64,000 nt of DNA from Amphiscolops sp. MND2022 (GCA_964187785.1 OZ076409.1:9488001-9552000); one strand, 5' to 3'. Shown: positions 1-42,330, numbered from the stretch's first letter. Notes: generated by a model not told the origin, from the letters alone. Program-made: numbers and translations.

Positions 1-1539
1 TTGGGGAGCAATTGGGTGGGAGTCTCTAGCCACCTTCTTTGCTTCCTGAAGGGCAATCCCTAGAATTTCCTTCCCATCCTTGTCAAACAGTGGGGTGCCA
101 GGAATTTCCATGCGAATTCGGTGTTCTTTCGTCAAATGAGTGTCTGAACGGTAATGCGAAATTAATTCCAACGGTCCCCGGCTCATCAGCGATAGTTCCG
201 TCCTACATACTCTACACCACCACTTGTAAGGTGTTTTCTCAGCATCCAGAGGACCGGTTGCGGAAAATTTAAGTACTGGATGTTTCCTGAGCATACTCAC
301 TGTCAGTGAGTACCTAGGTCTCCTCCTCTTGCCATGTGTTGTCTGTTGCCTTTCATGCCCTTCAGATGACAGAGGTCTGGACGATGAGGGTCCGGGAAGG
401 TCTTCCTGACTTGATGTAGCTAGGAGTGTAGGATCCAGAGTGTGATCCACGATAGTTAGCGATAAGGGCTGATTAGCATCTACCCCTTCGCCGGACATGA
501 AGTTCTGTGGGATTCGTTCTAAGACACTACTTAGTGTCAGAATCTCCTGCCGAGTGACGTTAAGGCTGGGATAGGCAACGCCAGTAAAGTCCCCTTCAGT
601 AGGAGCAGTGCGGGTGGTTTCTTGAAGTCCAAGATTTCCAATCTCATAATTGGCGGGGTCATCGAGTAGAGTGGGAATTTCCCCCGTAGCGTCATCAAGT
701 AAAGTTGGAGTCAAATACTGCCCGAGTTGGAAAGGAGAAGCCTGGGCAATTTGGGGGGCAGGATAAGTCCCGGTAAAGTCATGCTGTAATACTGGATTAA
801 AATCGCCCATGTTAGTGGTGGGGGTAGTTGCAGCTGTTTCACCAAGATTGACACGTCTATCTGGGGAGTGTAATTCAGCTCTCTGTTTTGGTTCCTGTGC
901 TGAGCAGTTCTCTTCACGATTCACAGATGCAGGGGTAGTTACTACTTCTATACCCTCGTCAATGCTGAGAGGTTGAGCACTAGGAGACACAAAGGGAACT
1001 TGGAGACTGGCTGTTCTAGGCGAAGCTACTCCTAGTGGGGTAAACACTTTGTCAGGCGTCTTTACAGAAGGAGACTTTTCTGAAGTGGCGGAAGTTTTGT
1101 GAGGCGATTTTTCTGGTGAAGTCCGAGAAGTCCAGAGTTCAACTAAAACAATGATCTATTACCTAATGAAAGAAGGAAGTGGATCTGATCTAGCAAGCGA
1201 AACACGTTTGAAAATGCCTGAAACCGGACGCGGGGACAGGAAATGAAAGTAGAACGGAAGTAGCTTAGAAGTTCGAAGCGGAAACGTTTCAAAAAACCCG
1301 AATTTGGACTAGACATTTTCGCTAGCCATTTTCAAGCTGCAAGCCTGGCCAGCTTTGCAAAAAACCAAAAAGTCTCAAATCTGAATCAAAATGAACCAAA
1401 TCAAAACAAATGAGTTGAGCTTACCGGACATCGGATTGAGAGGTAAATCACTCCAAAAGTCGTCGCGGTGATGTGGCGATTGATCTTTTCTGGATCTTCG
1501 TTTGCCTGAAGAACCTGACCCGCCAGGTGTAGAATCCAT
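1..1539 (-). CDS. Spliced BED-type zinc-finger protein, 5' part (exon 1539-1425, intron 1424-1143, exon 1142 to beyond window start)
   Basis: Manual translation; absent from the ORF track because the frame runs off the window. ATG at 1539 (MDSTPGGSGSSGKRRSRK...), GTAAG donor at 1424 and TTTTAG acceptor at 1143, both phase 1. A stop-free 380-codon frame follows: S/T/P-rich linker, KRRRPR NLS-like patch, then WWCRVCRTELSLMSRGPLELISHYRSDTH (CxxC...H...H). Confidence 0.85.
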
Positions 1540-2690: not shown

Positions 2691-2893
2691 CCCTTATAAG
2701 GGAAGTTAAAGGATCAGAACATGACACGCAATTTTTCCGCGGGTTTTCCTCCAAAGTCAGAAGGAAAGAGAAGAGAGATCACCATATGGTTTTCAATTCA
2801 ATTCACATTCAGCAGCTCTTTCACTCCAAATAAGTTTGTGAGAACTTTCTCTAAAAAATACACTACAGTAGAACCCAACAATAAAACAGAAGA

Positions 2894-3933
2894 ATGCGAA
2901 CCAACATAGACGAGATCTCTTCGCCCTCAGTTATCGACGTTTCCAGTGAGCCCGGGGAAGAGTTTATGGTGGAACCAGGAAATGTTCAAGCTCTGGACGA
3001 GAGATTCCGAGTGGGAGGCCCTTCCTCAGATGCCATGTCAGCCTTTGTGGGCGCAGCCGCCGCAACTCTGTTTCCCTCCTTTTCGATTCCCTACCAAACT
3101 GAGGAGGTCATTGATACTGATGGATCACAGATCGAAAGACAACTGATGGAACTGGTGGAGGAACACTCGAGCAATGGTTCAGTCTCGCCACCATCGTTTA
3201 TAGATACAGAATTCGAAGAATCCCCAGAGTCCCCAGATGAACTGGAAAAAAGTGGAAGCATGCCTGCGAATAGCTATGGCCGTCCGACCGCCTCAATTTT
3301 ACCGACTCCAAGGGGTCTTGGTAGGGGCAGAGGAACGGTTACCTGTCCTGTGCCGACATACCCACCTGGTTACTTGCCTCAAACGAGCAACTTTGACCTA
3401 ACAAGAAATGACATACAGGAAGTACAACCAGTGAATCCTGGTTCTGGGAACAGTGTCTATCAAAACAGACCAATTATTGCCAACCCAAATTTTCCTTTTA
3501 TTAGTATGCCACTACAGCAGAACGTCGTCCCAATGATGATCCAAATTCCACAGAACGCACCCAATTTCATAGCCAGCCCAGGAGGTTTGCATGCCCAACA
3601 ACAAGCACGCTATGGATTTACAGTACAAACTACCCACAGTACAAGTTTCCTGTTGTTGCCCCCCAGAGAGAGAGAGACGCATATCGCCTGTCCCCCACTG
3701 TGATGCCCAACATCGCTGGTTTTTGCGACTGGTGTGGCAGGACGTATGATCAAATCGGGTTGGAGATTCTCGGGGAGTACCTCCTCGCAACAGCGTATGA
3801 AGCGGAAACTGTGAGAGATCGCAATGTAAGGTCACGAGCTTTCATCGATGGATTTGAGGCAGCCCTGTTCACTTTCAAAAATGCAGGACTGTCGCAACCC
3901 AGAACTTGCGTGGGATCCGGAGAGCAACAGTAG
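2894..3933 (+). pseudogene. Accessory ORF of unknown function (about 345 aa), split by one frameshift near 3660-3678
   Basis: ORF 2894-3703 and ORF 3700-3933 join if the frame shifts in the CCCCC/(AG)n run, giving ...RERDAYRLSPTVMPNIAGFCDWCGRTYD.... Acidic, Pro/Gln-rich N-part; CxxC-containing C-terminal domain. Confidence 0.55.
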
Positions 3934-4218
3934 TTGAAGCGAACAGTGTGTCTGACCATCGTCTGAAAACTGTGAAACTTTCACAATAAACAATTTGTTT
4001 TATTTGTTTTCATTTTGCCTTTTCTCTTTTTCGAAAGTCATGTAAATAACTTGTACAATTTAATGTGAAAAGGGCCTAGTTTTACATGTCATTGAGAGCA
4101 AACAATTGCATAAAACCCGAGTTAGAGTAAAGGAAACACGTGTTGATGAGCAATATGTTACGTAACATTGATTCTTATTTAGCCCAATTTAGTTCAAATA
4201 CCATTTTGTGCTGACGAC

Positions 4219-4405
4219 TATGCGGTAGTCTGCGGTTCGAGCAGTACCGCATACTCGTCATTATGCGTTATTTTGTCAAGATTCACTATGCGGCACCCTA
4301 CAGTTCGAGGAGTGACGCATACTCGTCACTATACGTTTTTTTTTGCAGAAACACTATGCGGTATTCTGCGGATTGTGTAGTGACGTATACTCGTCATTAT
4401 GCGGT
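4219..4405 (+). repeat. Second array of the element-A motif (TATGCGG/TACTCGT variants), about 33-35 bp period
   Basis: Copies at about 4219, 4252, 4286, 4320, 4355 and 4388, e.g. TATGCGGTAGTCTGCGG and TACTCGTCATTATGCGG. Confidence 0.8.
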
Positions 4406-4838
4406 TTTAGCAGGACCTTCTATATAGCTTTGGAAGCTGAAGTAATGCTATTTGGAAACCATCTTAAATGTATTTTATATCGCATTCTAGGTAATTTCCA
4501 GGGTTTTCCCTAGTCCTTTCCTTAAATATACTTAGAACGTGATGCAATTCAGCTGATGCTATAAATAGAATGACGTTACCCTGACGTAATCCTATTTTTG
4601 TCTTTTCCAAATAATGATTGCAGTAAAAATGAGTGTCATGGTATTTTTGGAGCTATTTCATTCTAAAAACTGAAGGAGAATTCATTCAATCCTGAACTGT
4701 CAACAAGTGCAGTTGCTTCTTCAAACATCTGTAAACCTTTTGGTAATTTGCTGATACTCTAGTGTCTTGTTATTTCAAATAGACAAGATAATTCAAATTC
4801 TCCCCCAAAAGCCAAAAACCATTTTCACCCAAAGCAAT

Positions 4839-5418
4839 ATGGGAAACAAACGCAATAGACGATCTAGGAGATTAGAGACTCCTTCCCCAGAAAGAGAAGT
4901 GGAAGTAACTCAAGTAGGAATACCCATTACAGGTAATGAGACTTTAACTAATTCTAATACGGTTGTTCAAGAAAATTTAGGTGAAAACAATTCAGAGGGC
5001 CAGTTGATCGAACCCAGTGTAGTTAGTAATGAAATTCAAGCCTGGACCCAAATTATGGAACAAAAGACTAATGATCGAATTGAAAAAATGAGAGAAGAGA
5101 TGGAAAACAATCTGGAAACAATCTTAAAAGAGATAAAGTCTAACAAAAGCGCTTCTACGGCAACAAATCCAAGGTCAGAAATTAACGAAAACATAGATCA
5201 GCAACCGTCGGGATCCAAAATAGATAGGTCTAATGGAGTTCACGCATCAAACATTGGAAATTCTGATTCTGAAAATGACGATTATCCTCTTAGGGCTTCT
5301 AAAATGAAAGATCTTAGACATCCTGCAAAGCCTTTGTTTCGAGCTGAATCAGATGTAGACGTAACTATACATTCAGACGAAGAGTCTGATGCAGAGAGCC
5401 TAGGTGAGGATTATCACA
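4839..5418 (+). pseudogene. gag: Gag N-terminal segment embedded in the presumed 3' LTR of element A
   Basis: MGNKRNRRSRR..., a coiled-coil stretch (EKMREEMENNLETILKEIK) and an acidic tail ending EDYH. Same organisation as the LTR-embedded gag start of element B. The remainder of the ORF-track call reads flanking DNA and B's LTR. Confidence 0.55.
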
Positions 5419-5440
5419 GCACGACAATAAATACAATATA

Positions 5441-7683
5441 TGTCGAGCCCTACCCTGTGGGTCGGCTTTGAAGAACTTTGCGATGTTGAAGGTAAGTTAT
5501 TTTCATCATTTTTACTAATAACTGCCATCAATAAGTTCTTCAGTTGACTAAATTCGCTTTGTAACTCATTTATCTTCTTCTCATAGTTCTCTTTTATTTC
5601 AGACAATTGGGACGAGATATCTGAAGGTTCGTTATTGTCAGAGTCATTGGCGGACGATTGAGCCATGTCTGGATCTATTGGAGGAGATGTTCCTGACGAG
5701 GAATGTATAACTCTACCGCTTCTAAGTTCAGTGCCTTGGTCCGGATTTATGTATTCGAGAGAAAAGAATTATGAGTGAAGACTGAATTATCTGAGATGTG
5801 TTTTCGATGTATCTTGCTGATTTAACTGAATGTTCGATCCCAAAATTCACTAATTTGAACTGAGATGTTTTAGAAAGTAGTCGTACAAATAAGTAAGCAG
5901 TTATATAAGGAAAAGAAAACTAGCAAGTTATTCAGAAGAAGTTCATCCAATGTTCATCGCAGTCGTAGATGTACCAAGAAATTACTCAGTTTAAATTTCT
6001 CAATTTCTGAAGATGAAATAGAGATGTGTTTTCTGACTTTTGCGTGTTAAAATATCCAACTTGTCGGTAGCTTGTCGCAATTCGGGCTGAGTAATATTTA
6101 ATGGCGGTCCAAATTACAGCAGTTCACGTGTCTTTTCGGTTGGTAAGACGCTAAATCTCTTACCAACCTTCTCTCATTGGCTGTTACCAGCTGGTGTTAA
6201 AATGGTAAGTCACGTGACCGGTGTTGTGAACTGCCGCAAAGTGGCCACGCACCATGGTACATCTACATGTGTTAATGGTGTTTTAGTCATCAATTTACAG
6301 TGTCGCAATTGCCTGCACATAACATCATGGTTTCTATAGTAACTAAAATGGACTCAAATTATTCAATAACGCACTAATTTCAAGCAAATTTAAGGTAAAG
6401 CACACTTTGGGATGGGAAAACGATGTTTTCCGCTGATTCTAGCACCAAAATCAATGATTTAAAACTTGAAGATGGAAATGCGATGAACTTGTAAGAATAT
6501 TTGCTGATTTCCAAGTATAGTTTAGCTCTGGATGAAAATGCGATGAATGGTAGTCTTTCTCGCTCGGAAATCAACACAATTCAAACTGACGATGACAAAA
6601 GGATGAACTCCATGTACAATTTGTCAATTTCCAGCACAGATTCAAATGACGATGAATTAGGGATGAATCCAGTCGATAAACGCTAATTCTAATACAGGAG
6701 ATTTTTGGCGATGGGTTTAGGATGAACTTGTCAGTTAAAACAGCAAATACCAGAGCAATACAAATTGACGATGAGTTTGGGATGAACTCACCGGTTAAAA
6801 CACCGAATACTAAAGCAGTTCGATTTAGCGATGAGTTTAGGATGAACTCACCCACTAAAATGGTTACTTTTCTGCACAAACGAAATCAAGATGAATTGAG
6901 GATGGGTTTACTAAACAAATCAGATAACCAGCACTTTCACTCTTTTTAGGATGAATTAAGGATGTACTTTCTCATTTCTCTTCTGTACTAGTGAACGCGA
7001 TGAATAAAGGATGGACTACTGTTCTTTAGAAACGAGAAGCACATTCAGGAATTACTAAATGAAATAATCACGATGAATTAAAGATGAGTTTTACTAGAAT
7101 AAGTCCCATAAAATCCGCTGATGGATTTCTGATGAAAGTCAGTTTAAAGTCCCATGTTTTGTTCACTCGCAAACTTTAAGGATGGGATTGCGGTGAACTT
7201 TGGTTAAAAGCACCGTTGAACCCGCTGATGGATCCAAGTGAAATTTCTGATCAGATCAAAATCGTCATCAAATTCGACGATGAATTTGTGATGAATTTAA
7301 TAGAATTTGTCACAACTACATACTCTGAGGCGGGGAGTTAGTAGAAGTTATATTTTCCATTACTTCCAATATTCCTCGGTCCAGTCTGACCGGAAAACTT
7401 CTCTCCCTTGTCGTGACAAACCAATATTTGAAATATAGCACTTTCAAGGCTAGATTCTGGCAAGATCATTTATGCGGACACCGGAACTAGAGCGCTCAGT
7501 ATTAAGTAAATATATATAACTCACACTCAAAAGGGGAAGGGATTAAAGTACAAGTAACGTAGGGTTGCTCACAACCATGGCCCTTATTATATGACATCAT
7601 ATTGCCCATATCTAAGTACATAAGACATAATATTTACATTACAGATATTAAGTAGATTACATTTCCATCATGCTGGCATGACA
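5441..7683 (-). repeat. 3' LTR of element B (2243 bp)
   Basis: Matches 22000-23833 except for a 411-bp block (6625-7035), a 2-bp indel and about 8 substitutions seen by eye. Confidence 0.95.
6411..7293 (+). repeat. LTR array of GATG-N7-GATG motifs, mostly 60-bp period
   Basis: Motifs start at 6411, 6471, 6531, 6591, 6651, 6710, 6770, 6830, 6890, 6950, 6999, 7072, 7120, 7181 (variant) and 7279; the intervening sequence is divergent. Confidence 0.9.
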
Positions 7684-7697
7684 CTCCCCGGGGCGGG
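7684..7697 (-). other. Putative short polypurine tract of element B
   Basis: Minus strand reads CCCGCCCCGGGGAG directly before the LTR start TGTCATG; only the last 6 nt are purines. Confidence 0.5.
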
Positions 7698-8986
7698 ATT
7701 TGGATTGAGAGTGCAGGGGCCAAATGTGCAGAGGATGGTTGTCTCGGCGTTGGCTTCGACTGGTTCCTTCGTTTGGTTAGGGAGAAAATTGGTCCTTCGT
7801 TCGTTCTGAATTGGCATTTCCTTCGTTTGTTCTGTCCTGTGTGTATCTTCTCTGAGAAGAGGACTATCGGCAATCGTCATGTCTGGCTTCATTCTGGGTG
7901 ATTTCGGTTAAAAATTTCGACGCGGCAACTCTAATTCTTGGCCCATCGAATGTCCGCTGATCTGCATTTTATTGGTTGTCATGCTTTTGGTGGGAGCTCA
8001 GTCTGTCGATTGTTTCGGTGGAAATCTCGATTTCCTGGTGAAAAGATTTCCTCAGGCCGCCTACGCTAAGTAAACATTCTGCTAGTTTCGTTGACAATTT
8101 GGCAGTAAATCGGCGCCATTTCTTGTCTGCCGAAGTTTCCCGGGATGAATGAACGATGAATTGTTTACTCAGCGAGACATCGATGTTGACTTAACAGACG
8201 GCTGGCGCCGCCGCTCTGTCAATCTCCGCGATAGGAAAGAGATGATTTTGTTGTCATAGCAACCGTCACTGTCGCTTCCGCTGTCTGATTTTCTCAGCGA
8301 TGAGAAAGAGATGAAATCGTCGCCATAGCAACTGCTGCTAAATTCTGATTGGCGGAAAACTGAATTTTCTGAACTGGAGGAAACTCAACCGGTTGTTAAC
8401 AAACATTCTCATCCGTGAATCATCTTCCGTCAAGTCGGTTTTGAAAATCGCCACGATTTCCTTTGCGCGTTTCCGCTCAACTTCGTCGGCATTGATCTGA
8501 GACTGGCAGCTGTCATCAAAATCAAATACTTGAAGCTTTTGTAGTCAAATTCTGGGGGGCGATTCATTTTCAGAGAAAATTGCTAAGTTGGTTGAAACTG
8601 GGAAGAAAAGTGTAGAGAGTCATTGAAATCGGAGAGTTTTCATCGATTTTTCATCTTCTGAATTTCAAGTATTTGGTTTGTCCTGTCGCTCAAGCAGCAT
8701 TCGCGCTCTTTAAAGTTTTTCGTGAATTTGTAATCTCGCAATCATGGTTGATCAGGCCATTTAATTACTGATCAAATTCTTGTCCTCAGATTCTTCGATT
8801 TCGTTCCTTTCTTCACTCTCTTCCGTTCCTTTTCAGATTGTTTTGCAATTCTTCACGATGTCGGATATCCACTCCGTCTATTCGTTACCGGAGACCGAGG
8901 CCACAGAAAATAAGTGCACTATTTTTTCTCTTCTTCACAAACGGGTTAGGGAATAATTAGGAACTGAAGGCGTGTCTTGGTTTTAG

Positions 8987-11900
8987 CGGACTCCGTTCAC
9001 TCTGTCGGCAGGCATCATTTCCGAGCTGACTACATTGCAGACAGTTCCGCCTCAAGAGGCTCCAATCCATGCAGCATCTCACGCACCTCAGTATCAACCT
9101 GAGCAGCAAATTGAACAGGCCCCTAACGTCCCGCATCTTCCGCAGTGTAAGTTCTTTCCTTTCAGATCATCATCTCAGTCTACAATCTCTTCTTTTCTCA
9201 TCCCCGATCCATTCAGACGCTGACTCTTTCCGTTACTGTTTAGATCACTATCCCTGGTATGCCTCCCTCGGTAGCATCACCTTCGGGTGGTATGATCGCC
9301 ACATGCGGGACATGCTACGAGATAGCATCCAGCAATTTAGTGAGTTGACTCCATTTTACTTTCCTCCTGTACTAAGGCATCGTCCGGACACTCCGATGTA
9401 ATTCCGATGTAAACATCTCATCTGCATGTAGTGCCCTACGCGGTCGGTTACCTCATAAAATTCATTTTTAGGATGAATTTAGGATGTATCATGAATATCC
9501 ACAGTTTTCATGGCTGATTCGTTGCGAATTCCATTTTGAGGGTGGATTTGAGATGAATTCTTCTCCTGTCTTCTTTCTTCGCGCGGCGTACGCGCACTTT
9601 CTTCTTCATTCGTCGTCGTCTGATTTCTGTTTCCTTCTTTCAGGTACAACGCCTATCCATGCCCCGAGACCGCGTCCCATCACCTATTCTATCGGGATCG
9701 GGACCAGTGACTTCGGTGATGGCAGTGTTGACGTCAGCACACAAGGAGGGCCTCCTCAACTCAACCTCTCCTCGTTCCTCAATGAACTGTCGCTAACTGG
9801 AGTGAGTTCTCCTGTCAGGCAGGCGCCAGTGTCTGTACTGTCGCCAGTGTTGAGGCGATCTTTCACCGTTGCTAGTCCTCCTCCTGCTCGTATTACTCTC
9901 GACGCTGCTGTAAATGCTGTTGTCGATTGTAGAGACATGGCCATCAATGCCTGTGTGGGCGTTGCAGATCAAACTGTCCAAGCTGTCACTGAAACTGGAG
10001 ATGCTGCTACCTGCTATGATCCTCCAGCGATTACTCCACCGTCTTCTCCTCCTCCACCGATTGCTGATGTTCCTGGGGCAGTTGACGTTGACGTTGCCCC
10101 GTCCGAGGTTCCCTCAGCTGGCACCACCGAGACCCTACTGGAAATCCCTGACGATTTCTCATTTCGTAGTACTCCGTCTGGCGTGTCTGCTCCAGGGAGT
10201 GTTGCGTCCAATGTGGCTACTGCTGACATCGAGAAGTCTCCAATGGGACCCAGCCTGTTGGACTCCGATGACGAGCCCATTGCATCTCGTCTGCCAGGTT
10301 AACTAAACAGCTTTAAACCGGTGAAGTATCTGATCAGTAGATTTTCATTCATTTCCTTCTTCGTTTTTACTTTCACTAGCATTTTTCACGTTTTTCTTCT
10401 TTTCTATCCATTTTCCATCGTTTTTCTGTTTTCACTATATGGTTTTCTGCAGTTTTCCATTTTCCATCACTTTCTCATCGTCAAAAGTTTTGAACAATAG
10501 TCTTTTCGCTCTCTGGTCCTTTTTTAGAACTTTCCATCTCTTTTACATCTTTAAAATTCCTCGTTTCGGTTTTCGCTATTTTTCAGTGTTTTCTTTTCAG
10601 TTTACATCTCTTTTTCATCGTTAAGTTGTTTTCGCTCTAAAATATCTCAATTTTGGTTTAAAGTCGTTCTATTCATCTCTTTTCCATCGTTCGAGTTTTT
10701 CATTCTTTAAAGTTTCCATTTTTCATTCTGGTGGTGTGCAAACACATCTCTTTTTCATCTTTTCGTTTTTTCTTCGTTTTTCGCTTATATTTCCTATGAA
10801 AATATTATTTTACATCATGTTTTCATCACTCCGGGTGAACTTTTTTGGTTTTTACTTGTGACTTTTGCATTTTTCGATTTTTCTGATGTGTAACAGATGA
10901 TTTTAGTCGTTGTCTATGATGGTTTGTAATGGTATTACTTTTGCTATATTGTGTGGTTGTGATTATCAGGAAAGAAAGTGATCAAGTCTGGATGGTTTGA
11001 TCATCCATACTGCGGGCTGGCGCTAGGATATGCACGCAATCACGAGTCGCGCATGTCGTATGTGCGATGTCTAATGTGCAAGAGAGATGTTAAGGTGGGC
11101 AGCCGAGGCATTACCACCTTTATGGAGCACTGCCGAGGCCTAGGCCATCATCGGCTGGATTGTGTGGTACGGCTGCACCGAGGGCTACCGTTGCGGCGAC
11201 GTGATGGAACTCTCATGACAAGTGACGAAAGTGCAGAATGCCGTGTGAACCTGGAGGGGGTGTCCGTGCCTTTCATAGAGACCTGTCCATCACTTAATGT
11301 GGTGGAAGTTTTCGAGTTGGAGGGTGCTGGACGACCTGTGTGGGGCGACGAAGAGGAAGGGGAAGACTGGCCAGAGCGAACTGTTCGTCTGTTTATTTGC
11401 TTTGTTGTGGACGCCCTATATCGTGATTGTCAGTTTGCCAGTGTCACAAACCTGTGGGAAGTGTTGGTGGCTTCCGATCCCCAACATGCGGTCTTGTTTG
11501 GGGCGCAATGCGGATTGAACGATGTCATGGTAAGCGTCTACTCGTATGTTTTTTAGTCATACTTTTGGCCATTATGTGTTCTTCTAGTTTTAGTAGTGGG
11601 TGGGGGGTAGGGTGGATGCTATTTTTATGTTTTATTCACAGCGTTTTTGTTTTAGAGCGTGATCGTATTAGGGCTGTGGCCGTACGTGATGCGGCGACTG
11701 ATCACTGTCTGGACCGATAGCACTTACAGTAGCTTCCATTTGTCAGTTGTGGGAGGGCGCGTGACAGGGACTGTTACAGTGTGTGTGTTAGACGGGGTCA
11801 AGCTTTACTGTGTGTTTAGCTTCACTGTGGCTCGAGACTGGGAAAGCAGGGTAATCACATGGCTAGTGAACATGTGGTGCTGTATGCTCGGTGAGCCAGT

Positions 11901-13446
11901 CCCACTTGGACTGTGTTGCGATGAGTTGCCGCAGCTGGGTGGGCTCTTTCGAAGCAGGACAGGAGTCGGATCATTGGACGTGAAGTCTCTGGGTCTGTCA
12001 GATGTCAGTCGGGCAATTGTGGATGTGTCCGGATCAGTGCTGGGGGGTACAGACATTCACGTGGTACTGAACAATTTACAGAAACGTCTCAAAGGATACG
12101 TGAAAGATCCTCTGTTGCTAGGATGCCCTCAACTTCTGCAAGTACGTAGTATATTAGAGAATTGGTTGATGTAATAATTTTAGTGTTGTGCAGGTGTGTA
12201 GGCGTGATGTAATTGTTTGATTTTATCGAATTGATTGGGATGGTATTATTTACATTTTAGGCGATTCTTACCGGCGAGGTGTACATTTGGACCCTGGCCG
12301 ATGTGTGCGAGGGGTTACGGACGAACTGGTCTGACATCTTATGCTTGCTACGCTTCGCTAGTGGTGAAGGGCCTTTGGATGCCTTAGACTTGACACTACG
12401 TGCTGAGATCGGCATTCCGATTAGACTCCGTGTTCTTGGTCTTGTGTACCGTGCTTGTTAGTAATACTTTAGTTCTGTAAGTTACGGGGGGGTTTTGGTT
12501 TTTTTGTTGAGATCGAGTTGGAAGCTATACGGTTGTGGGTGTAATGTTAAACCTGGTTGTTTCTTGTGATAATTGTGATTCGTGTTTTTCAGTGATCAGC
12601 TCCTACGAGAAGAGTTTTGGGTCTTCGACGTTGCGCGCGTGCTACTGGGCAATTGAGAGTGCTGCCTTTGTGAAGTCACTGATGATGATGCTAGTAGAGG
12701 AAGAAAAGCTACCATCGGAATTGGACATTCGTGGATGGCTCTTTCTGAATGTGGAAAGCTATGAAATCTCAGAAGTGAAACATCAGGTGTTGCTGGACGG
12801 ATTTCGTTGTGTGGACGATCAAGGCTCGAATGCCGCTCTATATGAAGAGGATTTGTCACTTGTTCCGGTTTTCATTCTAACCGTTGTGAAGACTGTTATT
12901 AATCTGCCAGGTGTGCGAGACGATCTGTCGTTTGTGCGCAGTGTTTTCAGTATGCCCTGTCTGAGTTTTGTTGCAGAGGACGTCCTATTAGACGAGATCA
13001 GGATTTTCACTGATGTGCTTGTGGATCTGGGTCGGATCACCCGTGCGGAGCAGGGTCGGATGGAACGTGGCTTTCTGGATTTCCTTGTCAATATCCGACG
13101 TGACCCGGGACTAGCAGGACGTACAGAGGGTTGTTCTGTCATCGATCTTCTTCGCCATTGTTCTAGTGGTGGCGCTCAGAATCTGCTTCGCAGTGTTTTA
13201 TGCCTACATGGAGGAGTTCAGAGCAGAAGCAGTCTTTGCTGCGATGGATTTGGGCAGTTAAGTAGCGATGTCACGAGTTGTGTTTGTGCTGTGATTTTGG
13301 CCTATTTGTCTGCTAATCATATCCAAAGTTATGACAGTGTGAGCGGCCCTTTGTTAGAGGAAGTGACTGAGTCACATCGACGATTGGTCAATTTGGCGGA
13401 GCTGGACGAGGGTATGTTGTGGGACGACATCGGAATTGTGGCCTGA
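8987..13446 (+). CDS. Multi-exon antisense accessory gene of element B: low-complexity N-terminus, BED zinc finger and degenerate hAT-transposase-like body (about 1010 aa or more)
   Basis: Exons 8987-9146, 9217-9339, 9644-10297, 10970-11529, 11656-12141, 12261-12456 and 12593-13446. All six introns are GT..AG and phase-compatible (1,1,1,0,0,1); total 3033 nt = 1011 codons. Zinc finger CLMCKRDVKVGSRGITTFMEHCRGLGHH. The first exon is unresolved (candidate ATG 8858 with a damaged donor near 8910). The frame continues past TGA 13446 to TAA 13530. Confidence 0.8.
10405..10827 (-). repeat. Intronic array of the element-B motif (CATC-N7-CATC on plus strand), about 70-bp period
   Basis: Starts at 10405 (variant), 10465, 10535, 10605, 10674, 10745 and 10813. 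Confidence 0.88.
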
Positions 13447-13838
13447 GAAGATTATCGTCTCCAATTGTATGCGAAGCTAGGATACACGCTTAGTGGGGAA
13501 CGAGCTGCCAGTCCGGAGATCGGCAATTAATGATTGAGATCCAACTGTAAACTCCGTTGTTTGAAACTTTTGTTTTGCTTTGCTCGATTTTATATTATAG
13601 TTAGTATTTTGTTATCATAATGGGTTGCCAAGAGAAATGAGAATACTGGGAGGGGGGAAAATTAAAAGGCTACGTCGGAAAGTTCGGTAGCTTGTATTTA
13701 CAAGTTAAATGATGTGGCACCCGAATTGTTTTTCTCTTGAGATACTAGTTAGTGATTGAGGTCGTAGGCAGGTTAGGTTTGCGGATCATTAGTTTCTGCT
13801 GTTAGGTCACGTCATTCAGAGTTTCAAATTTCATCTAG

Positions 13839-14221
13839 CATCGTTTTCACATCGTTTTTGCGTTGTCACAATTCTCAGCTAGTCTTTTTGCGGTAATCAT
13901 CGTTATTACATCTCGTGGGAGTGTAGGTGATTCGGTAGCGTTTCATTTTTGATTTCTCATCTCATTTTCATCACGTTTTCCTCGGTCGGCCGAGCGACGT
14001 TGCGAAAACTGATTTCTCATCTTTTTTACATCGTTTGTTATATGCGATTCATTGCATGTTTGTTACATGTGATTTTTCTACATAGTTCATCGTTTTTTCA
14101 TCTTGCCTTTTAATTTTTGCATTTTTGCTAGTTTTTTGGTGTAATTCATCGTTTTTGCATCGCAAGTTTGACTTGGCAAGTTTTTTGCTCGTTTTGCGGT
14201 ATAGTTCATCTTCTTTTCATC
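13839..14221 (-). repeat. Array of the element-B motif (CATC-N7-CATC), about 60-bp period
   Basis: Starts at 13839, 13898, 13958, 14018, 14088, 14147 and 14207. Confidence 0.88.
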
Positions 14222-15150
14222 GTAATTTTGAAGTTTTGTAATTTTGTGCGTTTTCGTGGCTCTGTGACTCTGACGTTTTCGGGAATGTACTTTTCATATG
14301 GTATGTGCATGTTTTACTCATTTTATACTGTCTCAGTATGATTTTCATTCTCTTTTTAATTTTACATGTCGTTTTGGTGTTCGTGGTATTTTCATAATGT
14401 AATCTTTTAATGGGTTACCCCATTATTTGCATGTTGGTTATTTCTTGATTTTGTTCGTCAATTTGGACAGGGCTTTGTCGTCTCAAAGCCCCTACAAAAC
14501 TAACTGAGAATCCACTAGCCGCTGGATAACCAACGCAGCAAGCTTCATCCGAATATGGTTGTGAGCTCCCCGCCTCAACTAACCAGCACTCTTTTCAGAG
14601 AAATGCCAGCCAGCACGAAGGAATGTTTTTGGCTTCTCGATAGGGGTGTTTTGCTTGTTATGAACTGATGTTTGCTGGGGGGTGCTCACTCCTTTATTCG
14701 TTTTGTAGGTGTTTCGTCAGTTCTTATATTTTGCATGTAAGTTATTAGGCTTCATGTATTTTCGATTGTTTGTTTCATTTTTATTCGTCTAGGTTTGGGT
14801 GGCTTTGGTGTGAATTGCATATATTATCTCGTTCGTTTTTAAACGGTACATGTATATTTCCGTGTGTTACTCATTTGTATTGCATGTAGTTTGGAATTTT
14901 CAATTTCTTTCGTGACGTCATTGATTTGGCAGGTCTTTGAACTTTACATGTATTGATCATTTCATTTTTGTGTCGCATAATTCTGTTTGCATGATTCGAA
15001 ATAAAGTCGGTTGTTTTTTATCGTTTCGTGGAGTTACATGTTGTTTGAGAGTTAGCTGATTTATTGTGATGTTATGTTGATGGTGTTTCCCATCGCAAGG
15101 AGGTTTTGGTAAGTCATTTAATATTTTCGAACTTCCATTTAGACTAAATT

Positions 15151-15685
15151 CATCGTTTTGACATCCTCCAGCGAAGCTAGAGTATTGTGTCAGGTTAACG
15201 ATAAATTCGGTCACGATTTGATGGTAGCGTCCATCACAAATTCATCTCGTTAATTGATTTCATGTAATTTATGAATAATTGGATCGAGTTCATCGCTATT
15301 TCATCCTCTAGCCGAGCTAGAGTCTTATGATAGCATGAACGTGAGTGCGTTCGCATTCTGATGGTATTTTCCATCTCAAATGCATCGCTAGTAAATATTG
15401 CATGTTGATTGGTCGAATTTTTGACTGAGTTCATCACTTTTTAATCTCTCGTGTGTCTGAGCTAAATTTTCATGTGATTTCATCCTTTTTTCATCTCAAA
15501 TTTTTGTGTGTTGTTTTTTCTGGTTTTTTGGTCGTTTTTCATCCGTTTTACATCGTGTTTTGTTTTTATGCGTTTTTCATGTGATTTTTAGTAACTCTTC
15601 ATCCATTTTACATCTTCATGTTCATTTTAAATTGAAATTGCATGTAATTGACTCGTTTTTGTGAATTGTTCATCTTTAACACATC
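15151..15685 (-). repeat. Array of the element-B motif (CATC-N7-CATC) just 3' of pol
   Basis: Starts at 15151, 15232, 15291, 15372, 15432 (variant), 15481, 15540, 15600 and 15671. Confidence 0.88.
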
Positions 15686-15713
15686 GTGTGTTTTGAAATG
15701 TTGTTTTTCTTGG

Positions 15714-18700
15714 CTAACTCGTTACGTTTACTTTGTTGGTCTTTCTCAGAGAGTTTCTGGCTGATGTAATCTCATGAATGAGGAAGTCAGGATATTTTTT
15801 CGGTGTAGGGTTTTCGCGTAACCTGTACCTACTTTGATTGTTTCTAGACGGTCTAGAACTCATCCTTTCCTCATCTTCAGTTTGTGTGTTTGTCTGTTGT
15901 GATTGATTTTCGTGTTGTTCGTCTCTCAGAGGTACTCTTATCCTACTTTCATCGCGGGGGGGGCGGTAGAATAATTTCTTCTTGCGTTCCAAATCTAACT
16001 CTAGGTGGTCTAAAGTTGTTGTGGTCAGTTTCTACTTGCTGATAATCTATTCTCGTGGTTACTTCTGGTGGAATTACTTGTGGACTGTGTTGTTCTTGTA
16101 CCTGCGGAATTATTTCTTCTGAAGGCTCTTCTTCGACTAAGTCTTGATCTAGATTGTCATTCTCATTCTGATCTACTTCGTCGGTCGTCGGAATATTCGA
16201 GTCGAAAATGTCCGTGTCTTCAACCCTTTCAGTGTCTGGGTAGAGATGTTTGGACACGTTGATGTCATCAATCGGAAATTCCGGTTTGAACAATCTCAGT
16301 CGCATGCGATGTACGCACTGAGTTTGGTGTGTGCCTACTTTGCGGATGATGTAGTTGCTATCGGATAGCACTTTCATCACCTTGTACGGTCCTTTCCAAT
16401 GGAAAGTTTTAAACTCTTCTTTGCTTCTCTGAGAGTCGTACTTATGATCTAGTAGGAACACAAATTCATTCACCTTCAGTGGCTGTGCTCGTGCTTTTCT
16501 ATCATAGTACGTTTTGTACTTATGATAGGCGGAAATGATGTTATCTAGATTGTCTCTGAAGATGAAGTTCATTTTGTCTAGAATTTCGTTCACGTCCTTG
16601 CACTTTGTTTCAGCCGGTTTGTTTGCGTTTCGGAATTGCAGATCTAGTGGGTTGTATGGTGTTCTTCCGTGGAAAATTTCAGTTGGTGAACATTTCAGTG
16701 AATCATGATACGTTGTGTTATGGGCCATGATTGCTATGTCGACATAGCGGTCCCATTGTGGTCGGTCTGCCTTTACACTAATTTTAAGGATCTTTTTCAG
16801 TTTCGCGTGCGTTCTCTCCACCATGCCTATTGTCTGTGCGTGCTTTATCGTGGCATGGGAGATGTGAATATCAGCCGCTTTCGCGATTTCAGACAGAAGT
16901 TCAGCCGTGAACGCCGTGCCCTTGTCCGTCAGAATGTGCTTGGGCACATACGCGTGTTTCGTGAAGATCGACAGTAATCCTCTGACTACGGAATGTGTAT
17001 CAGGTCTCTTCAGCGGAACGGCGAACAGGTAGCGTGAAAAAACGTCAACAGCCGTCAGAATGTGTGTAAAACCGTTCGACGCCGGGAGTGGACCAACGAT
17101 GTCTATTTCCAACAGGTCTTCTGGTCCGTCGCACGGGTCGTAGATTTTTTGTAACGGTGGACGTAGTTGCGTTTCTTTTACACTTTTAGATTTCATGCAG
17201 TTTTCACATCCGTCAAGGACTTTTTGAACTTTACAGGCTAAGTTAGGAGAGTAATATCTTTTACGAAGTTCGTACAACATTTTCTTTAAACCAGGGTGTC
17301 CTTGTACCGGGCTGTTATGTAGAGTCCTAATTATTTTCAAAATACAGTCTTCAGGAACAACTAACTGCTTGTGAGACTCCAGTCCCGTGTGATCAAAAAA
17401 CTGTCTGTACAAGACACCGTTTACAACTTGTAGGCGTTTTCGATTTTTGTGCAACTTTTGAAAAAACTGATCTTGCATATTAACTGGGTGTTGCAAAATT
17501 TCAGTACCTTCTAAAAATCTAATCATTTTTTGAAAAACCCAGTTATTTTTCTGGACCTGAATTAGATCGATCCCCTCAGCGGGGCTAACCTGACTCATTA
17601 CCGGGTGTGATAATGATACTTTACGGATGAATTGCGAGAGTTGAATTGGCTCGTCCACGTCTGTGAGGCGGTACGTCAGATGGTTGTCAGTCGCGAAGTC
17701 ATCTGAGGCCGCTGTTCTCTCACAGTTGGTGAACTTCATCCCTTTCCCATCGTCATGAGCCACGTCAGTGCCAGTTGCCAATTTCATCTCTTTGACATCC
17801 TTCTGGCGTTTGCATCTGAGTGGTTCGCTCGTGGGAAAGTAATCAGGCTCGTCTTCCTCCTGTTTTGGTGTACGGGAGGCGATGTCGATCTCGATCCTGT
17901 GAATTGGAATAGTATCAGTCAATTTTAAATGTACACGGTCTTCAGGTCTAATCTCAAGCCGAGATAAGTAGTCCGCTGCGGGATTTTCAACTCCTGGAAC
18001 ATGTGCTAATAAAAAATTGAACTGAAGGGTTTGATCGCAAAAATTCCAAAGTGAAGGCGGGATATGCTTCGCCTGAAAAAATCTAGTCAAGGCCTTATTG
18101 TCAGTCATAACAATGATGGGTTTTTTCGCACCCCACAGAATGTGGCCAAATTCATCGAAGGCAAAGTGCATAGCTAAAAACTCTTTGGCATACATTGTTA
18201 GAGACATCTGGCCGCCCTGAAATTTCTTAGAGCCAAATGCAACAGGGGCGTATGTTTGTTTGACTGACGGGTCAGCATAATCCTCAATTAACAAAACATA
18301 GCCGGCAGCGTGTTCGCTGGCGTCACACATGATTACCAATTGTTTATCAGGTAATGGCAATTTCAGAGACACTTTTGTTGCTTTTAACAAACTTTCATTG
18401 ATTTCAAAAATAGCATCTTTATGTTGTTGATTCAGTTTGAAAGGGACGTCCTTCTTGATCAATTCCTGTAAACAACAAGTTTTATCAGCTAGTCGGGGAA
18501 TATAAGACCTGTAAAAGTTTACAAAACCAAGATAACGTTGCAATGCTTTCACTGAGTTGGGGGGTTTTAATTTGGTCAGATAGTCAGTTACTCGTTTCTC
18601 AATGGGAGCAATACCGGTGCTAGAAATGGTTTTTCCCAAGTACTCAATTTGTTTTTGTCCAAATTCACAATTACTTATGCTAAGTTTAAGACCGGCTTTG

Positions 18701-20807
18701 TTCAGCTGCTGAAAAACAAGTTCAAGGTTATTAATCAGTTCGTCAGGGGTGTGTGCTGCAATTCCAATGTCATCAACATATTGAGCACATCGGTCCGCTT
18801 TGACCAAGAGGTCCAAATACTCACGGACTACACTTGTGAATGATGACAAAGAACGGGTAAGACCTTGGGCTAGACGTAAAAAGGCAAAAGTTCTAGAACC
18901 AAAATTAAACGATAACAGTTGGACAGACTGCTCATCGGCCATTGGAATGCAATGGTAGGCCTGGGAACAATCAAGTTTACAGAAATACTTTTTCCCGGCC
19001 ATGTGTTGGGCAGCGTCAGCAATTGTTTTTACAGGATGGTTGTGTTCACCGTAATCGTTTTTGATCATGTGGTTTATTCTTCTCAAGTCAACTAAAATCC
19101 TCAATTTACCATTTGGTTTACGTTGAGCAAATATCGGAGATGAGTATTTGCTATGAGGCAAAGTAGTTATGATCCCGTACTCTTGCATTAAAGCTAACTC
19201 CACGAGCAAATCGTCCTTCAAATTTGTCGGAGTAGGGAGACTTTGTGAATAAACAGGTTCTTCATGTTGGGGTGTTAGCTTAACTTTAAAATCAGTGTTC
19301 ATGCCAATATCAAAACGATGTCTAGCAAAAATGGAGTTGTACTTTACCAGCAACTCCTCTACCTGTAACCGTTGAGACGGAGTAAGAAGCGAGTCGTCCC
19401 AGTTGAAGTTCTTCAGGAAGTTCATCCGTTGTTCATCGGATTGGGACGGGTCAAGCTTCTCGAGCTCTCGTAGTGCCAGAATCTCATCATAGATTCGTCG
19501 CTCAATTGCGTTGAGTTTGTCTGGCTCACTGCACGTCTCGGGAGTTGGGTACCACTTAGTTGACTTCATTTCAGGGTTCACGAACAGTTGGTTGATCACT
19601 GCTTCCGCCTCATCTGGGTACTTGGTGATCAGGTTCAAGTGTTCGACTGGCATGGGTGTGATGTTTGCCGCCTGATGTGGTGTCGGTATGCGAAAGTGTG
19701 CCAGAGTGGTGTTGGCATCAAGTGTGAACGTGTGGTTGTTCGGGTTGGTGACCTGGATTGTCGTCTTGCCCTCGTCTAGGTCAACCAAAGCTGGAGAAAC
19801 AAGCAAACACGTCTTTCGCATGAATCCAGGTGAGCCCTCAACTGTACCAGTTGTAAGTGAGATGTCCGCGTCACTGTGGACCTGTATCATCACTTGATGG
19901 AGAGGAGGGATCACTGTTCTGGTACTGGAACACAAATCAATTAAACCAGTCTTGAATCTGTTGTTCTTTTGCTGTCTAACTTGCATGGACATCATGTGAT
20001 TAGGGAAGTGGACAAGGTGGTTTTTTATGTCTAAATTGACTGAGTACTTTCAAAGAATGACATTCCAATTAAAATTGTGCCCATTGTTGGAAGGATTAGG
20101 AACGTTTCTTCGAAGACTTTTCCAGCAACGTAAAATCTAAGTAAGACTTGCTTACGTACTGGGACTAAGTTCCCGTTTGCTATTTGAATTTTGAAATTCG
20201 GAGGGGGGAGTTCTTGAAGGATGGCTTCTGGATGAGCCGTTGTTATTTTTCGCAATTATGCTTCAGACATTGCACTTTGAATTGCGCCTGTATCTAAAAG
20301 TGCGCTGTTTTCATATTTGTCAAACTGAAGAGGGACGTAAAGCATTTTATCTTTCTTGTTTAAGTGTAAAGTGGGACTGAGAACGTGAATTTCTGTTTTA
20401 ATTACATGTTTTTTAGCTTTTGAAACGTTAATACTACTCTGTTTTGCATGTTTTTTAATACTATGCCGTTTGTCGATTGTTGAGTGTGAAGTCGAGTCGT
20501 CGTCAAGATGGTTGGTTTCCATCTCTTTGGCATCTTCCACCTGCCTCATGGTGTTTTGTTGCCAGTTCATCGTTTGTTCATCGTTGATTTCAGCGAGTGG
20601 AGAAAAGCGGCTGCCGTTGCGTTGACGTGCAATTCCCATCGCTTTTTCATCGTTGGAAAGTCTTCGCTGATAGACGTCGTCAGCTTTTGGTCGTTTGTCC
20701 AGTGAAGGCTGCCATTTCTTCATTGGACGGTTGTGTGTAGTCGGTTGAGTCGAAAGTCGTTTGTCGCGCGTTGTATTTCTAGCGGGCGGAAACCGTGGCT
20801 GAATCAA
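15714..20807 (-). pseudogene. pol: Pol polyprotein of element B (protease, RT, RNase H, integrase) with three lesions
   Basis: LLDTGA protease; RT motifs KLDCSQAY and YVDD; RNase H CDAS...EFLA...TDN; integrase H-H-C-C, DIVGP..TDKG..VER and WKGPY. In-frame TAA at 20256-20258, a frameshift near 20045 and another in the G-run near 15960. Confidence 0.95.
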
Positions 20808-22309
20808 AAACCCTGGTTAATGTCTTCATCAGAGTAGCTTAGTTGTTCGTCGTCCTCAGTAATTGCTTGCATTGGATTCATCAGCTTTTGCTGTCGTTTT
20901 AAATCTTGTCGTCTAGCCTTGTTGTCGTCCTGTGAATTTGTTGTGTATGGAATCTTTCCATATGCAGAGCTGCTTTCCTTGGGAATGCGTCGCCTGCAGT
21001 CTCTTGCAGAGTGGCCGGTGTATCCACAAATCTGGCAAACCAGCTTGGGATTGTACTTCGGTTTGTCTGTGTCGGTTGCTTTCTTCATCGGAATTGCATC
21101 TTCTTTCTTAATGCCGTTTGCTTCGTCACGTTGTCGGGCGCGGCATTCTGTTTTGCGGTGACCTGTCTTTCCGCAGTAGAAGCATTGTCCCTCAAATCGT
21201 TTTCGTTCTGTCGGTTGTGTTGTCGTCGTTGTTGCTGGTTTAATCGTTGTGTTGGTCGTTGGGACCGAGGATGTGACCGCGTTAAATGGTTGAATTGTCG
21301 TAGGTGGCGCAACGTACTGTTGGTACTGGTACTTTCTCATCAAGTATGTCTTGATTTCTTCTGGTGAGCTCTCCTCCTTATTGGCCATCGTAAGTTCTTG
21401 TTGTATTTCGACTGGGAGTTTACCGAACAAGAACATTTTGATGATTTTATCCGCTTCTTCCCCAAATGCTTGTTTCGCAGTCTTTTTCAAGTTTTTGAGG
21501 AAGTCGCTGAATGTTTCTGTGGTGGGATCGTAACGGGCTTGATCCCATTTGTAGCGAGCTACTTCTTTAAGGTCCTCTTTCGCGAATTCTTTCCTGAAGA
21601 GGTCGAGCACATCTGTCAGTGTTGCTAGTGGCGTTATCTGGATGGATTGCCAGTATTCTATTGCATCATCTCTCAAAAGGCTTTGAAAGAAGTGGAGTTT
21701 GTTCTCTTCGGTGATTTTGTTGGCGAGCGGGCTAAGGTGGTTGAGGAGAAGGTGCTCGAATTCCACGAATTTGTCTTTTTGGCCTCTGAAATTTGGGACG
21801 TGTGTCTGTAGTAATTTCGTGTTGGTGGTGGTGCTTTTGATTCGTTGGGGGATCGTCTCGATTGCATTGAGTAGTCGTTCCTCATTGCTTCTAGGAGTTG
21901 ATTCACCTTCTTCGTCCGAGTCGTCTTCCTGGTATCGCCTGAAGTTTGTGAAGCTGGATGTCGGGCTGGTGGAGCGGGTTTCTGTAACTCCTGTCACCAT
22001 GTCGAGCCCTACTCTGTGGGTCGGCTTTGAAGAACTTTGCGATGTTGAAGGTAAGTTATTTTCATCATTTTTACTAATAACTGCCATCAATAAGTTCTTC
22101 AGTTGACTAAATTCGCTTTGTAACTCATTTATCTTCTTCTCATAGTTCTCTTTTATTTCAGACAATTGGGACGAGATATCTGAAGGTTCGTTATTGTCAG
22201 AGTCATTGGCGGACGATTGAGCCATGTCTGGATCTATTGGAGAAGATGTTCCTGACGAGGAATGTATAACTCTACCGCTTCTAAGTTCAGTGCCTTGGTC
22301 CGGATTCAT
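20804..22309 (-). CDS. gag: Gag of element B (501 aa) with two CCHC zinc knuckles
   Basis: Capsid-like region VPNFRGQKDKFVEFE...LRDDAIEYW; knuckles CFYCGKTGHRKTEC and CQICGYTGHSARDC; ends on a GGGTTTT slippery heptamer. Confidence 0.95.
   Translation of the reverse strand: MNPDQGTELRSGRVIHSSSGTSSPIDPDMAQSSANDSDNNEPSDISSQLSEIKENYEKKINELQSEFSQLKNLLMAVISKNDENNLPSTSQSSSKPTHRVGLDMVTGVTETRSTSPTSSFTNFRRYQEDDSDEEGESTPRSNEERLLNAIETIPQRIKSTTTNTKLLQTHVPNFRGQKDKFVEFEHLLLNHLSPLANKITEENKLHFFQSLLRDDAIEYWQSIQITPLATLTDVLDLFRKEFAKEDLKEVARYKWDQARYDPTTETFSDFLKNLKKTAKQAFGEEADKIIKMFLFGKLPVEIQQELTMANKEESSPEEIKTYLMRKYQYQQYVAPPTTIQPFNAVTSSVPTTNTTIKPATTTTTQPTERKRFEGQCFYCGKTGHRKTECRARQRDEANGIKKEDAIPMKKATDTDKPKYNPKLVCQICGYTGHSARDCRRRIPKESSSAYGKIPYTTNSQDDNKARRQDLKRQQKLMNPMQAITEDDEQLSYSDEDINQGF
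21986..21999 (-). promoter_or_regulatory. Primer-binding site of element B
   Basis: TGGTGACAGGAGTT immediately follows the LTR end ...CTCGACA. It resembles the complement of a tRNA-Leu 3' end; isoacceptor not certain. Confidence 0.8.
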
Positions 22310-23833: not shown

Positions 23834-24849
23834 ATATATTTATTGCTGAAGTTGAATCAAACAATATATTTACTTTACTTTTTTTGAAAAAATATATTCG
23901 AATAGAATATTTCACCAGAGTTTTAATGTCTGAATAACTTGGAAGTAACTTGTTGTAGTAGCTGAAATTACACTCCTCTGTAACATTGTTGTTAGGAAGG
24001 AAGCGGCACTCCTTAGCAACTGCATACATACATGGTTGGAAGCATTTAGTGTTTGCTGCACTAGAAATCAGACACGGCTTAACGTTCCTTTTTTTTCCCA
24101 ATTTCATCAAAGTACACACACTTAATCACCGATACATGAAATCAATTTCTGGCTTTTTTATATTGGGTAACTCTAGCGATGGGCTGCTTTTGTAGATCTC
24201 AAAGTTCGGTTGGCGAAAAGTCGTCTTGAAAAAATGACGTAACACACTGTATACAAAAACATCACGTCTTTCATGCGGGTAAGCCATGGGTGGCAACTGT
24301 TGATTTCGTTCATTTTTGCAAAAGTTTCTGTGGAGACAACTGTAGCTGTTTTAACCCAACTTGTTTTCCAACTGAGTGAACGTCTCTGGTATCTCAGTTG
24401 GTATTTCTAAAAAACTGAGAGAAAAACGTAAGCAAATATGTTACTTGAAGTACTCCAGATGTATATTTCAGGTAATTCAGGCCTTCATCAGACCTAAAAA
24501 ATACTAGAGAACAAAAAAGGTTTTGGACGCTTGACGAAAACGTATCCTTGATATTGATGTTGCCGGCGAGATGCTCCTTCATTGCGATTAGAGGACCTGT
24601 CTGATAGCGAGAGCCTCCACTTGTAAAAAAATGTTTCTTTTTGGTACAAAAATATTGCGTGATATTCAATTACTCTGTACAAGGATGTCCAGCTTGTCGC
24701 ATTGGGAGATTTTGAAAGAATTGTTCTGATTCAACAACTTTCCGCAAGAGAAAAACACTTCTGATTTCTTTCTACATTGCTGAAATGATTACACTTTTTT
24801 GACAACAGATTTAGAGTGACTAGGAGTTTTTTATGATTGTTCTCAACCC

Positions 24850-42328: not shown

Positions 42329-42330
42329 CC

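Follow-up and report, generated by a model that had tools for sequence, protein, structure and literature searches.

A candidate antisense accessory gene with seven introns in an animal Ty3/gypsy-type LTR retrotransposon

Extra genes are rare in long terminal repeat (LTR) retrotransposons, and those in antisense orientation are known from plants and from a few retroviruses. HBZ of human T-cell leukemia virus type 1 (HTLV-1), for example, is a small bZIP protein and nuclear regulator whose spliced form involves one intron. In plants, the main texts of two reports (PMC7264820, PMC11963269) describe Ty3/gypsy elements of the Tat/Retand group with antisense extra open reading frames (ORFs) between pol and the 3' LTR, such as gene23 of maize Grande, rice RIRE2 and ORF4 of Silene Retand with Transposase_28; a nuclear or DNA-binding role is suspected for these ORFs, and HTLV-1 HBZ is cited as an antisense retroviral gene (PMC11963269). 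In animals, LTR elements of bdelloid rotifers carry captured ORF3 genes downstream of pol, which are shared modularly between lineages, are expressed through spliced transcripts and have env-like, GDSL or DEDDy products, according to the available text of PMC5408684. Here we analyzed a stretch of 64,000 nucleotides from Amphiscolops sp. MND2022 (GCA_964187785.1 OZ076409.1:9488001-9552000; hereafter the window, with positions counted from its first base), in which a Ty3/gypsy-type LTR retrotransposon carries a candidate gene on the strand opposite to gag and pol.

Structure and conservation of the antisense gene

The antisense gene (8858-13530, + strand) lies in the region that separates pol from the element's 3' LTR, both of which are on the - strand (Table 1). 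In our reading, to which we assign a probability of roughly 0.7, it is an accessory gene of this animal Ty3/gypsy-type lineage, with eight exons that are joined across seven GT-AG introns and encode ~1045 residues. The traits of an antisense extra ORF that the DNA sequence shows are the position between pol and the 3' LTR, the antisense orientation, the presence in many copies and the coding constraint.

On the + strand, the 8.2-kb region between pol and the 3' LTR holds stop-to-stop frames at 9472-10302, 10963-11556, 11656-12174, 12261-12461 and 12511-13446. Diverged copies from the same genome were fetched and aligned, and splice sites were scored over 29 loci, with the count varying per site. 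The acceptor AG of exons 3 to 8 was kept in 19/19, 29/29, 28/28, 28/29, 28/28 and 27/29 loci respectively, and the donor GT of exon 1 and exons 3 to 7 in 17/18, 20/20, 28/28, 27/28, 27/27 and 26/29; moreover, the GT and AG of every junction aligned across three subfamilies. Introns were far less similar than exons: against one diverged locus (L011), exonic 100-base bins were mostly 61-87% identical and intronic ones 52-60%. The seven in-phase exons with GT-AG ends that a model had read from the DNA sequence alone (the original prediction; exons 2 to 8 in Table 1) were thus confirmed, including the doubted junction 10297/10970, which was among the best kept (GT in 28/28 and AG in 28/28 other loci). 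Their total was revised: an upstream exon beginning with ATG (exon 1) is shared by all subfamilies, and therefore the gene has eight exons and seven introns, with exon lengths that add up to 1045 codons in undamaged copies, as counted from the coordinates. The wider claim, an intron-bearing gene of about 1000 amino acids lying antisense within a retrotransposon, was borne out by the exon structure and by the LTR element around the gene.

In a search of the 1.07-Gb genome, exon 6 had 950 and exon 8 had 979 first-look candidates, which belong to several subfamilies. Only the best candidates were scored, and no stop was present in 131 of the 150 scored matches to exon 6 and in 117 of the 137 to exon 8. 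All eight exons were recovered in order by tblastn, even in subfamilies whose exon 8 was at 39-41% amino acid identity. When diverged copies were first compared, exons 5-7 were 74-88% identical as protein vs ~72-79% as DNA, while exon 8 was 53-71% identical. Between subfamilies, nonsynonymous divergence (dN; Nei-Gojobori, summed over exons 5-8) was 0.15-0.51, synonymous divergence (dS) was >2 or saturated, and dN/dS, where definable, was 0.06-0.11. Low dN with saturated dS points to a protein-coding gene under purifying selection. As far as aligned sequences tell, the dN/dS comparison across element copies that the original prediction had proposed shows purifying selection between subfamilies to be strong. 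A profile of exon 8 searched against 1.84 billion proteins found 84 relatives, all of the same family, unnamed and of <=367 residues; several were very diverged yet had the C-terminal tail, and its 27 residues are kept in other assemblies. As these relatives are exon-sized, exon 8 exists as an exon in other assemblies also.

The copy in the window has three private defects. In an alignment with 15 family copies and three references, its exon-1 donor (8910-8911) was AT, while GT was found in 18/18 other sequences, and a 4-bp tandem duplication in exon 2 (9007-9014), which shifts the frame of exon 2 relative to exon 1, was found in none of 17 comparable copies. A TGA at 13444-13446 is likewise private to the window: at this place the other 19/19 copies encode Gly (13), Asn (5) or Asp (1), and their frames extend by a further 27 codons, which form a strongly conserved tail. 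Thus two features that had been read from this copy, a frame beginning at 8987 and a possible read-through site at TGA 13446, were due to its private lesions: the frame is present only through the 4-bp duplication, and read-through was rejected, as the position is a sense codon in the 19 other copies compared. To judge by these lesions, the antisense gene of the window copy is dead. Compared with a close sibling, its dN was 0.006 and its dS 0.008, the values expected if the sequence has decayed neutrally after insertion.

Table 1. Features of the antisense gene and of the element that carries it
Feature	Position	Strand	Evidence or remark
Exon 1: ATG + 17 codons + 1 base	8858-8909	+	exon and frame kept in all subfamilies; ends in phase 1
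Exon 2	8987-9146	+	tblastn matches start at residue 7, just past the 4-bp duplication of the window copy
Exon 3, most conserved short exon	9244-9339	+	81-100% amino acid identity (subfamilies with full-length match)
Exon 4, Pro/Ser/Thr/Val-rich	9644-10297	+	50-72% amino acid identity, indels; no Pfam match
Exon 5: BED-like zinc finger, then ~125 conserved residues	10970-11529	+	exon-5 alignment
Exon 6	11656-12141	+	predicted: helix, three strands, helix, more helices
Exon 7, 65 codons, two invariant Trp	12261-12456	+	family alignment
Exon 8, C-terminal part, predicted all-helical	12593-13530	+	AlphaFold2; family stop codon 13528-13530
Complete Ty3/gypsy-type LTR retrotransposon	5441-23833	-	18.4 kb; 5-bp target duplication ATATA
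Target-site duplication ATATA, left copy	5436-5440	.	identical 5 bases at 23834-23838
Target-site duplication ATATA, right copy	23834-23838	.	pairs with 5436-5440
3' LTR, 2243 bp	5441-7683	-	self-BLAST; TG..CA ends on element strand
5' LTR, 1834 bp	22000-23833	-	self-BLAST; followed by primer-binding-site-like TGG... on element strand
gag frame, zinc knuckles	20804-22327	-	zf-CCHC 1.8e-07 (Pfam)
Short frame ahead of pol	20256-20816	-	weak aspartic-protease match, Asp_protease E 0.096
pol frame, 1366 codons: reverse transcriptase, RNase H, integrase	15949-20049	-	Pfam
Region from 3' LTR to ATG	7684-8857	+	purine-rich tract adjoins LTR on element strand

The carrier element and its mosaic history

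The hallmarks of a Ty3/gypsy-type element were all present around the gene: a pair of LTRs with TG..CA ends, a short target duplication, the TGG of the primer-binding-site-like sequence, zinc knuckles in gag, and pol domains in the order reverse transcriptase (RT), RNase H and integrase (RVT_1 1.5e-20, RT_RNaseH 2.6e-16, Integrase_H2C2 2.1e-13 and rve 1.1e-13 in Pfam). The element owes its length of 18.4 kb to the 8.2-kb gap between pol and the 3' LTR. By self-BLAST, the LTRs were 99.5% identical between 5440-6624 and 21999-23183 and 99.4% identical between 7036-7683 and 23184-23833; such near-identity indicates a young insertion, and the gag and pol frames are open. The intervening 411 bases (6625-7035) are found in the 3' LTR only and contain 2.5 copies of a 60-bp repeat unit (6704-6852). 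A related element, on C1, has two full-length LTRs (2237 bp), and the 5' LTR of the window element therefore appears to have lost this segment. The stop-to-stop gag frame enters the LTR by ~109 codons (21999-22327), a portion that is repeated in the 3' LTR at 5440-5770, and an ATG overlaps the primer-binding-site-like TGGTGAC... immediately past the LTR. The N-terminal part of the pol frame (19700-19940) has a weak dUTPase match (E 0.076, residues 38-118); the domain ahead of RT in this frame could be protease-like or dUTPase-like. The stretch between the 3' LTR and the ATG of the antisense gene was 85-96% identical between subfamilies and, on the + strand, presumably contains the promoter and 5' untranslated region of that gene.

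Three elements of other subfamilies, on other chromosomes, had the same order of 3' LTR, antisense gene, pol, gag and 5' LTR, and the sequences on either side of the gene (8142-8857 and 13884-14254) were common to the subfamilies. Terminal inverted repeats (TIRs) were not found around the gene, where the only inverted pairs, nine in number, were short 70-94% matches in low-complexity sequence. This agrees with the original prediction, which had seen neither TIRs nor an 8-bp duplication around the gene: the flanks are shared element sequence. Its view that the gene is not a simple nested insertion also stood, since all subfamilies examined share the position of the gene. On the other hand, a motif in an intron, which had been taken as the element's own, consists of just 3-4 copies of short T-rich words per kb, and we did not use it as evidence.

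Divergence was distributed unevenly along the element. pol was 97% identical at the protein level to that of two relatives (dS 0.14-0.16; 0.35 for a third relative), while gag was 87-88% identical to that of the same two (dS 0.86-1.0; 0.72-1.0 over all three), LTRs were 76-86% identical, and antisense exons 5-8 were 39-73% identical with saturated dS; in one element comparison, the antisense stretch was not alignable by BLASTN. The break points of divergence varied with the pair compared and lay either in intron 4 or within exon 5, and the 5' part of the gene (exons 1-3 and introns 1-4) goes with the recently shared portion of the element. In introns and at synonymous sites, divergence matches that in the remainder of the antisense stretch, which argues for old divergence reshuffled by recombination rather than for fast adaptive change; as far as the sequences go, this mosaic indicates frequent recombination, or module exchange, between element lineages. 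In a related element (G000:C10:18060500-18075500, covering L039 and L020), a 4467-bp tandem duplication, 99.96% identical, spans part of the LTR and antisense exons 1-4. Co-variation of LTR and cassette, which served as a test of whether the protein binds its own LTR, was not apparent when the C1 and C10 elements were compared with the window: the C1 element had 76-78% identity in the LTR and 60% in exon 8, and the C10 element 80-86% and 39% respectively.

Elsewhere in the window, a second retroelement occupies 33000-47700 (+) in AT-rich, strongly skewed sequence, with RT_RNaseH, Integrase_H2C2 and rve in a frame at 37962-39971. Downstream of it, a frame of 699 codons (42541-44637) matches the Monjiviricetes viral fusion glycoprotein (E 3.7e-24) and by this match is an env-like gene of the negative-strand-RNA-virus type. 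To the left of the LTR element lie tandem repeats of 32-33 bp (1905-2023) and 68 bp (4217-4403), and the frames 1-1155 (-), 2885-3703 (+) and 4755-5471 (+) had no Pfam match. At other places in the genome, nuclear-receptor ligand-binding domains were detected and a WRKY domain was not, which identifies the host as an animal; one such ligand-binding domain (G000:C4:50436048-50436581) is encoded within an uninterrupted frame of 607 codons.

Features and origin of the encoded protein

The first three exons combine small size with high conservation, and the variable protein segment encoded by exon 4 is probably disordered. In the family alignment of exon 5, residues C33, C36, H53, C54, H59, H60 and C64 are invariant, a pattern that shows a conserved predicted Cys2-His2 finger; zf-BED was the sole Pfam family to recur there, in 9 of 14 members (best E 0.0016; window copy E 0.12). 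Within the family, no acidic residue is conserved in the first predicted strand, Asp or Glu follows the invariant C88, and D133 is invariant. Pfam detected no family above its cut-off in the window exons of the antisense gene, single chance-level matches only in 38 exon-6 members, and no family in 10 diverse exon-8 proteins. Among PDB sequence profiles, the best match had an E of 0.25 for exon 6 and 0.37 for exon 8, with none for exon 5, and ESM Atlas gave no usable match for exons 6 and 8. The homologue search found no longer protein that carries exon 8 or the exon-5 alignment; the exon-6 alignment, searched at near lengths, retrieved 50 unnamed ORFs without Pfam domains, and the cluster members of 10 relatives had no names. 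For predicted structures, Foldseek reached a best E of 0.057 with the exon-6 model, and Foldseek together with a structure search of 48,161 chains returned generic helical matches only for the exon-8 model.

The original prediction took the protein for a catalytically dead derivative of a hAT transposase, in which a BED finger, an RNase H-like core without the first Asp, a helical insertion and a degenerate dimerisation region had been recruited as a DNA-binding factor. Such an origin is, in our judgment, rather unlikely, although it is the strongest of the alternatives. It would explain the recurrence of zf-BED in exon 5 (a genuine hAT transposase from this genome reaches just E 0.018 for its own BED finger), as well as the hAT-like sequence of finger, strands and helices and the all-helical model of exon 8, the insertion domain of hAT transposases being all-helical too. 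However, Dimer_Tnp_hAT (PF05699) was detected in 0/10 exon-8 proteins at E up to 1, while two native hAT transposases gave E 5.3e-17 and 3.8e-17; among the 146 matches listed in a scan of the genome for PF05699, none fell at the window copy or the fetched loci; and no other hAT-related Pfam family appeared in the window exons, the 38 exon-6 members or the 10 exon-8 members. DUF4371 (PF14291), sought for a Buster-type hAT profile, had no match in the genome at E <=1e-15. By hhalign against five intact native hAT transposases, probabilities were 0.6% for exon 5, 0.2% for exon 6 and 0.2% for exon 8, and just the Cys-Cys..His stretch aligned finger to finger. No transposase occurred among the 84 exon-8 relatives, the hAT fold was absent among the structure matches of exon 8, and the match of exon 6 to Hermes (152-239) was within 1 Z unit of SRP14 and others, far below the level that the tool treats as meaningful. 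Neither are there TIRs beside the gene. The motifs matched to hAT by eye (YSSFHLSV, LGLCCD and the C-terminal LSSDV region) were reproduced by no alignment method, and the catalytic Asp, Asp and Glu positions are not assignable because no alignment to hAT is reliable; profile checks on single exons (Pfam, PDB profiles and hhalign) and fold searches with the exon-8 model gave no hAT match for the supposed descent. The protein might be a very remote hAT/BED relative that lacks catalytic activity, and might then have been domesticated as a non-catalytic DNA-binding factor. The combined scenario asks for more: a seven-intron antisense gene derived from a BED-finger (hAT-type) transposase, kept until its synonymous sites were saturated as a trans-acting DNA-binding factor that the element requires, with exons 5-8 swapped as a cassette between lineages of near-identical pol. 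This we hold to be doubtful, less probable than a hAT origin as such.

A cellular gene unrelated to transposases, which an ancestor of these elements picked up with its introns at the DNA level and has since kept, is as doubtful as that combined scenario. BED-type fingers are also present in host proteins other than transposases. The seven introns with ordinary GT-AG ends and the lack of a detectable transposon family would suit such a source, and gene capture is the origin stated for some extra ORFs of LTR elements in the main text of PMC7264820. However, neither a copy outside an element nor an annotated cellular relative was found, no longer protein turned up when exons 5 and 8 served as queries, and 50/50 relatives of exon 6 and 84/84 of exon 8 are unnamed, exon-sized ORFs; a diverged host copy could be hidden, because the best 150 of ~950 candidates were scored. 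Far less probable is a one-time nested insertion of a separate DNA transposon or other element. Nested insertions are common and the gene is oriented opposite to gag-pol, but each of the subfamilies examined has it at one and the same position between conserved flanks (three full elements; 29 loci in all), which excludes a one-off event, and it is flanked by element sequence common to subfamilies instead of by inverted repeats. Least credible of all, with next to no weight, is that the frames are open by chance or that the strand yields non-coding antisense RNA only. The window copy is indeed unable to make the full protein; nevertheless, across the family the frames stay open despite saturated synonymous sites and at the low dN/dS given above, the splice sites are conserved, and even the homologues in other assemblies retain the 27-residue tail.

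Several observations weigh against our own reading, an accessory gene of this element lineage. By a strict test, exons 4-8 were all open and full length in only 9/29 fetched loci, and thus many copies have decayed, that of the window included. The presence of the gene in 19/19 diverged loci (two without a match to one exon or the tail) is a count over loci that were fetched for it. The antisense transcript and all seven junctions are known here from DNA sequence. The protein tests were run exon by exon; zf-BED scored below the 20.6-bit Pfam cut-off in every member, and the models are of low confidence for exon 6 (pLDDT, the predicted local distance difference test, 45; helix, three strands, helix and further helices) and of middling confidence for exon 8 (mean pLDDT 61.7; all helices). 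Finally, gene and pol differ in history, as the mosaic of divergence implies (pol dS 0.14-0.35, gag 0.72-1.0, antisense exons saturated), and the tie of the gene to this pol lineage may be looser than the phrase "own gene" suggests.

Possible role and comparison with known systems

As an accessory gene, the antisense frame would be transcribed from integrated copies, starting at an antisense promoter within the 3' LTR or close to its inner edge, and its message would be spliced. Introns that lie antisense survive retrotransposition, as they are not removed from the genomic RNA and are copied back into DNA. The introns of this gene would thus be inherited through reverse transcription because, being antisense to the genomic RNA, they are not spliceosomal introns there, and their presence in hundreds of copies fits such inheritance. 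The finger, the selection and the analogous systems together suggest a nuclear nucleic-acid-binding product that may act in trans for the element; by analogy with what has been proposed for the Tat/Retand ORFs and HBZ, it might control transcription of the element or guide its integration. A gene of ~1045 codons kept under purifying selection in ~1000 copies must matter to the element. It offers a handle on the control of element expression or on the choice of integration sites, and a clean demonstration that introns pass through reverse transcription when they are antisense. Were the hAT link true, one class of mobile elements would have domesticated an enzyme of another class; in the combined scenario, a retroelement would have domesticated a DNA transposase, and no antisense accessory gene with several introns would have been described before from a metazoan LTR element.

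A full-text literature search found no antisense extra gene in an animal element, none with several introns and none related to this protein. hAT transposases and their domesticated relatives (Hermes, ZBED and DAYSLEEPER) resemble it in the BED-like finger, followed ~150 residues later by a unit of three strands plus helix and then by helical sequence, and Hermes also in the weak structural match of residues 152-239 (from a poor model, and tied with unrelated folds). They differ in that the protein here has no detectable Dimer_Tnp_hAT, no profile similarity to five native hAT transposases and no conserved acidic residue in the first strand, and its gene no TIRs. The ORF3 genes of rotifers are alike as additional genes past pol in animal LTR elements, but are not described as antisense in the available text of PMC5408684, whereas the gene here is antisense and has internal introns.

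Closer are the antisense genes of retroviruses: HBZ, APH-2 of human T-cell leukemia virus type 2 (HTLV-2) and ASP of human immunodeficiency virus type 1 (HIV-1) are all encoded antisense to gag-pol in the vicinity of the 3' LTR. Unlike HBZ, the gene here has eight exons, a zinc finger and ~1045 residues, and a promoter in its 3' LTR is presumed. With the Tat/Retand ORFs it shares the location between pol and the 3' LTR, the antisense orientation and the presence of the ORF in most copies of a family, as well as a long region between pol and the LTR (8.2 kb here vs 2.9-6.6 kb in Retand), as far as the main texts of PMC7264820 and PMC11963269 describe them. On the other hand, its host is an animal, and it has seven introns and ~1045 residues, while the word "intron" is absent from those main texts. 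Pfam scans of exons 4-8 and of family members gave no match to Transposase_28 (PF04195) or SMC, and the protein is unrelated to those of Tat/Retand elements as far as Pfam tells. The antisense extra ORF, as carried by plant Tat/Retand elements and by HTLV-1 in HBZ, is thus the closest known kind.

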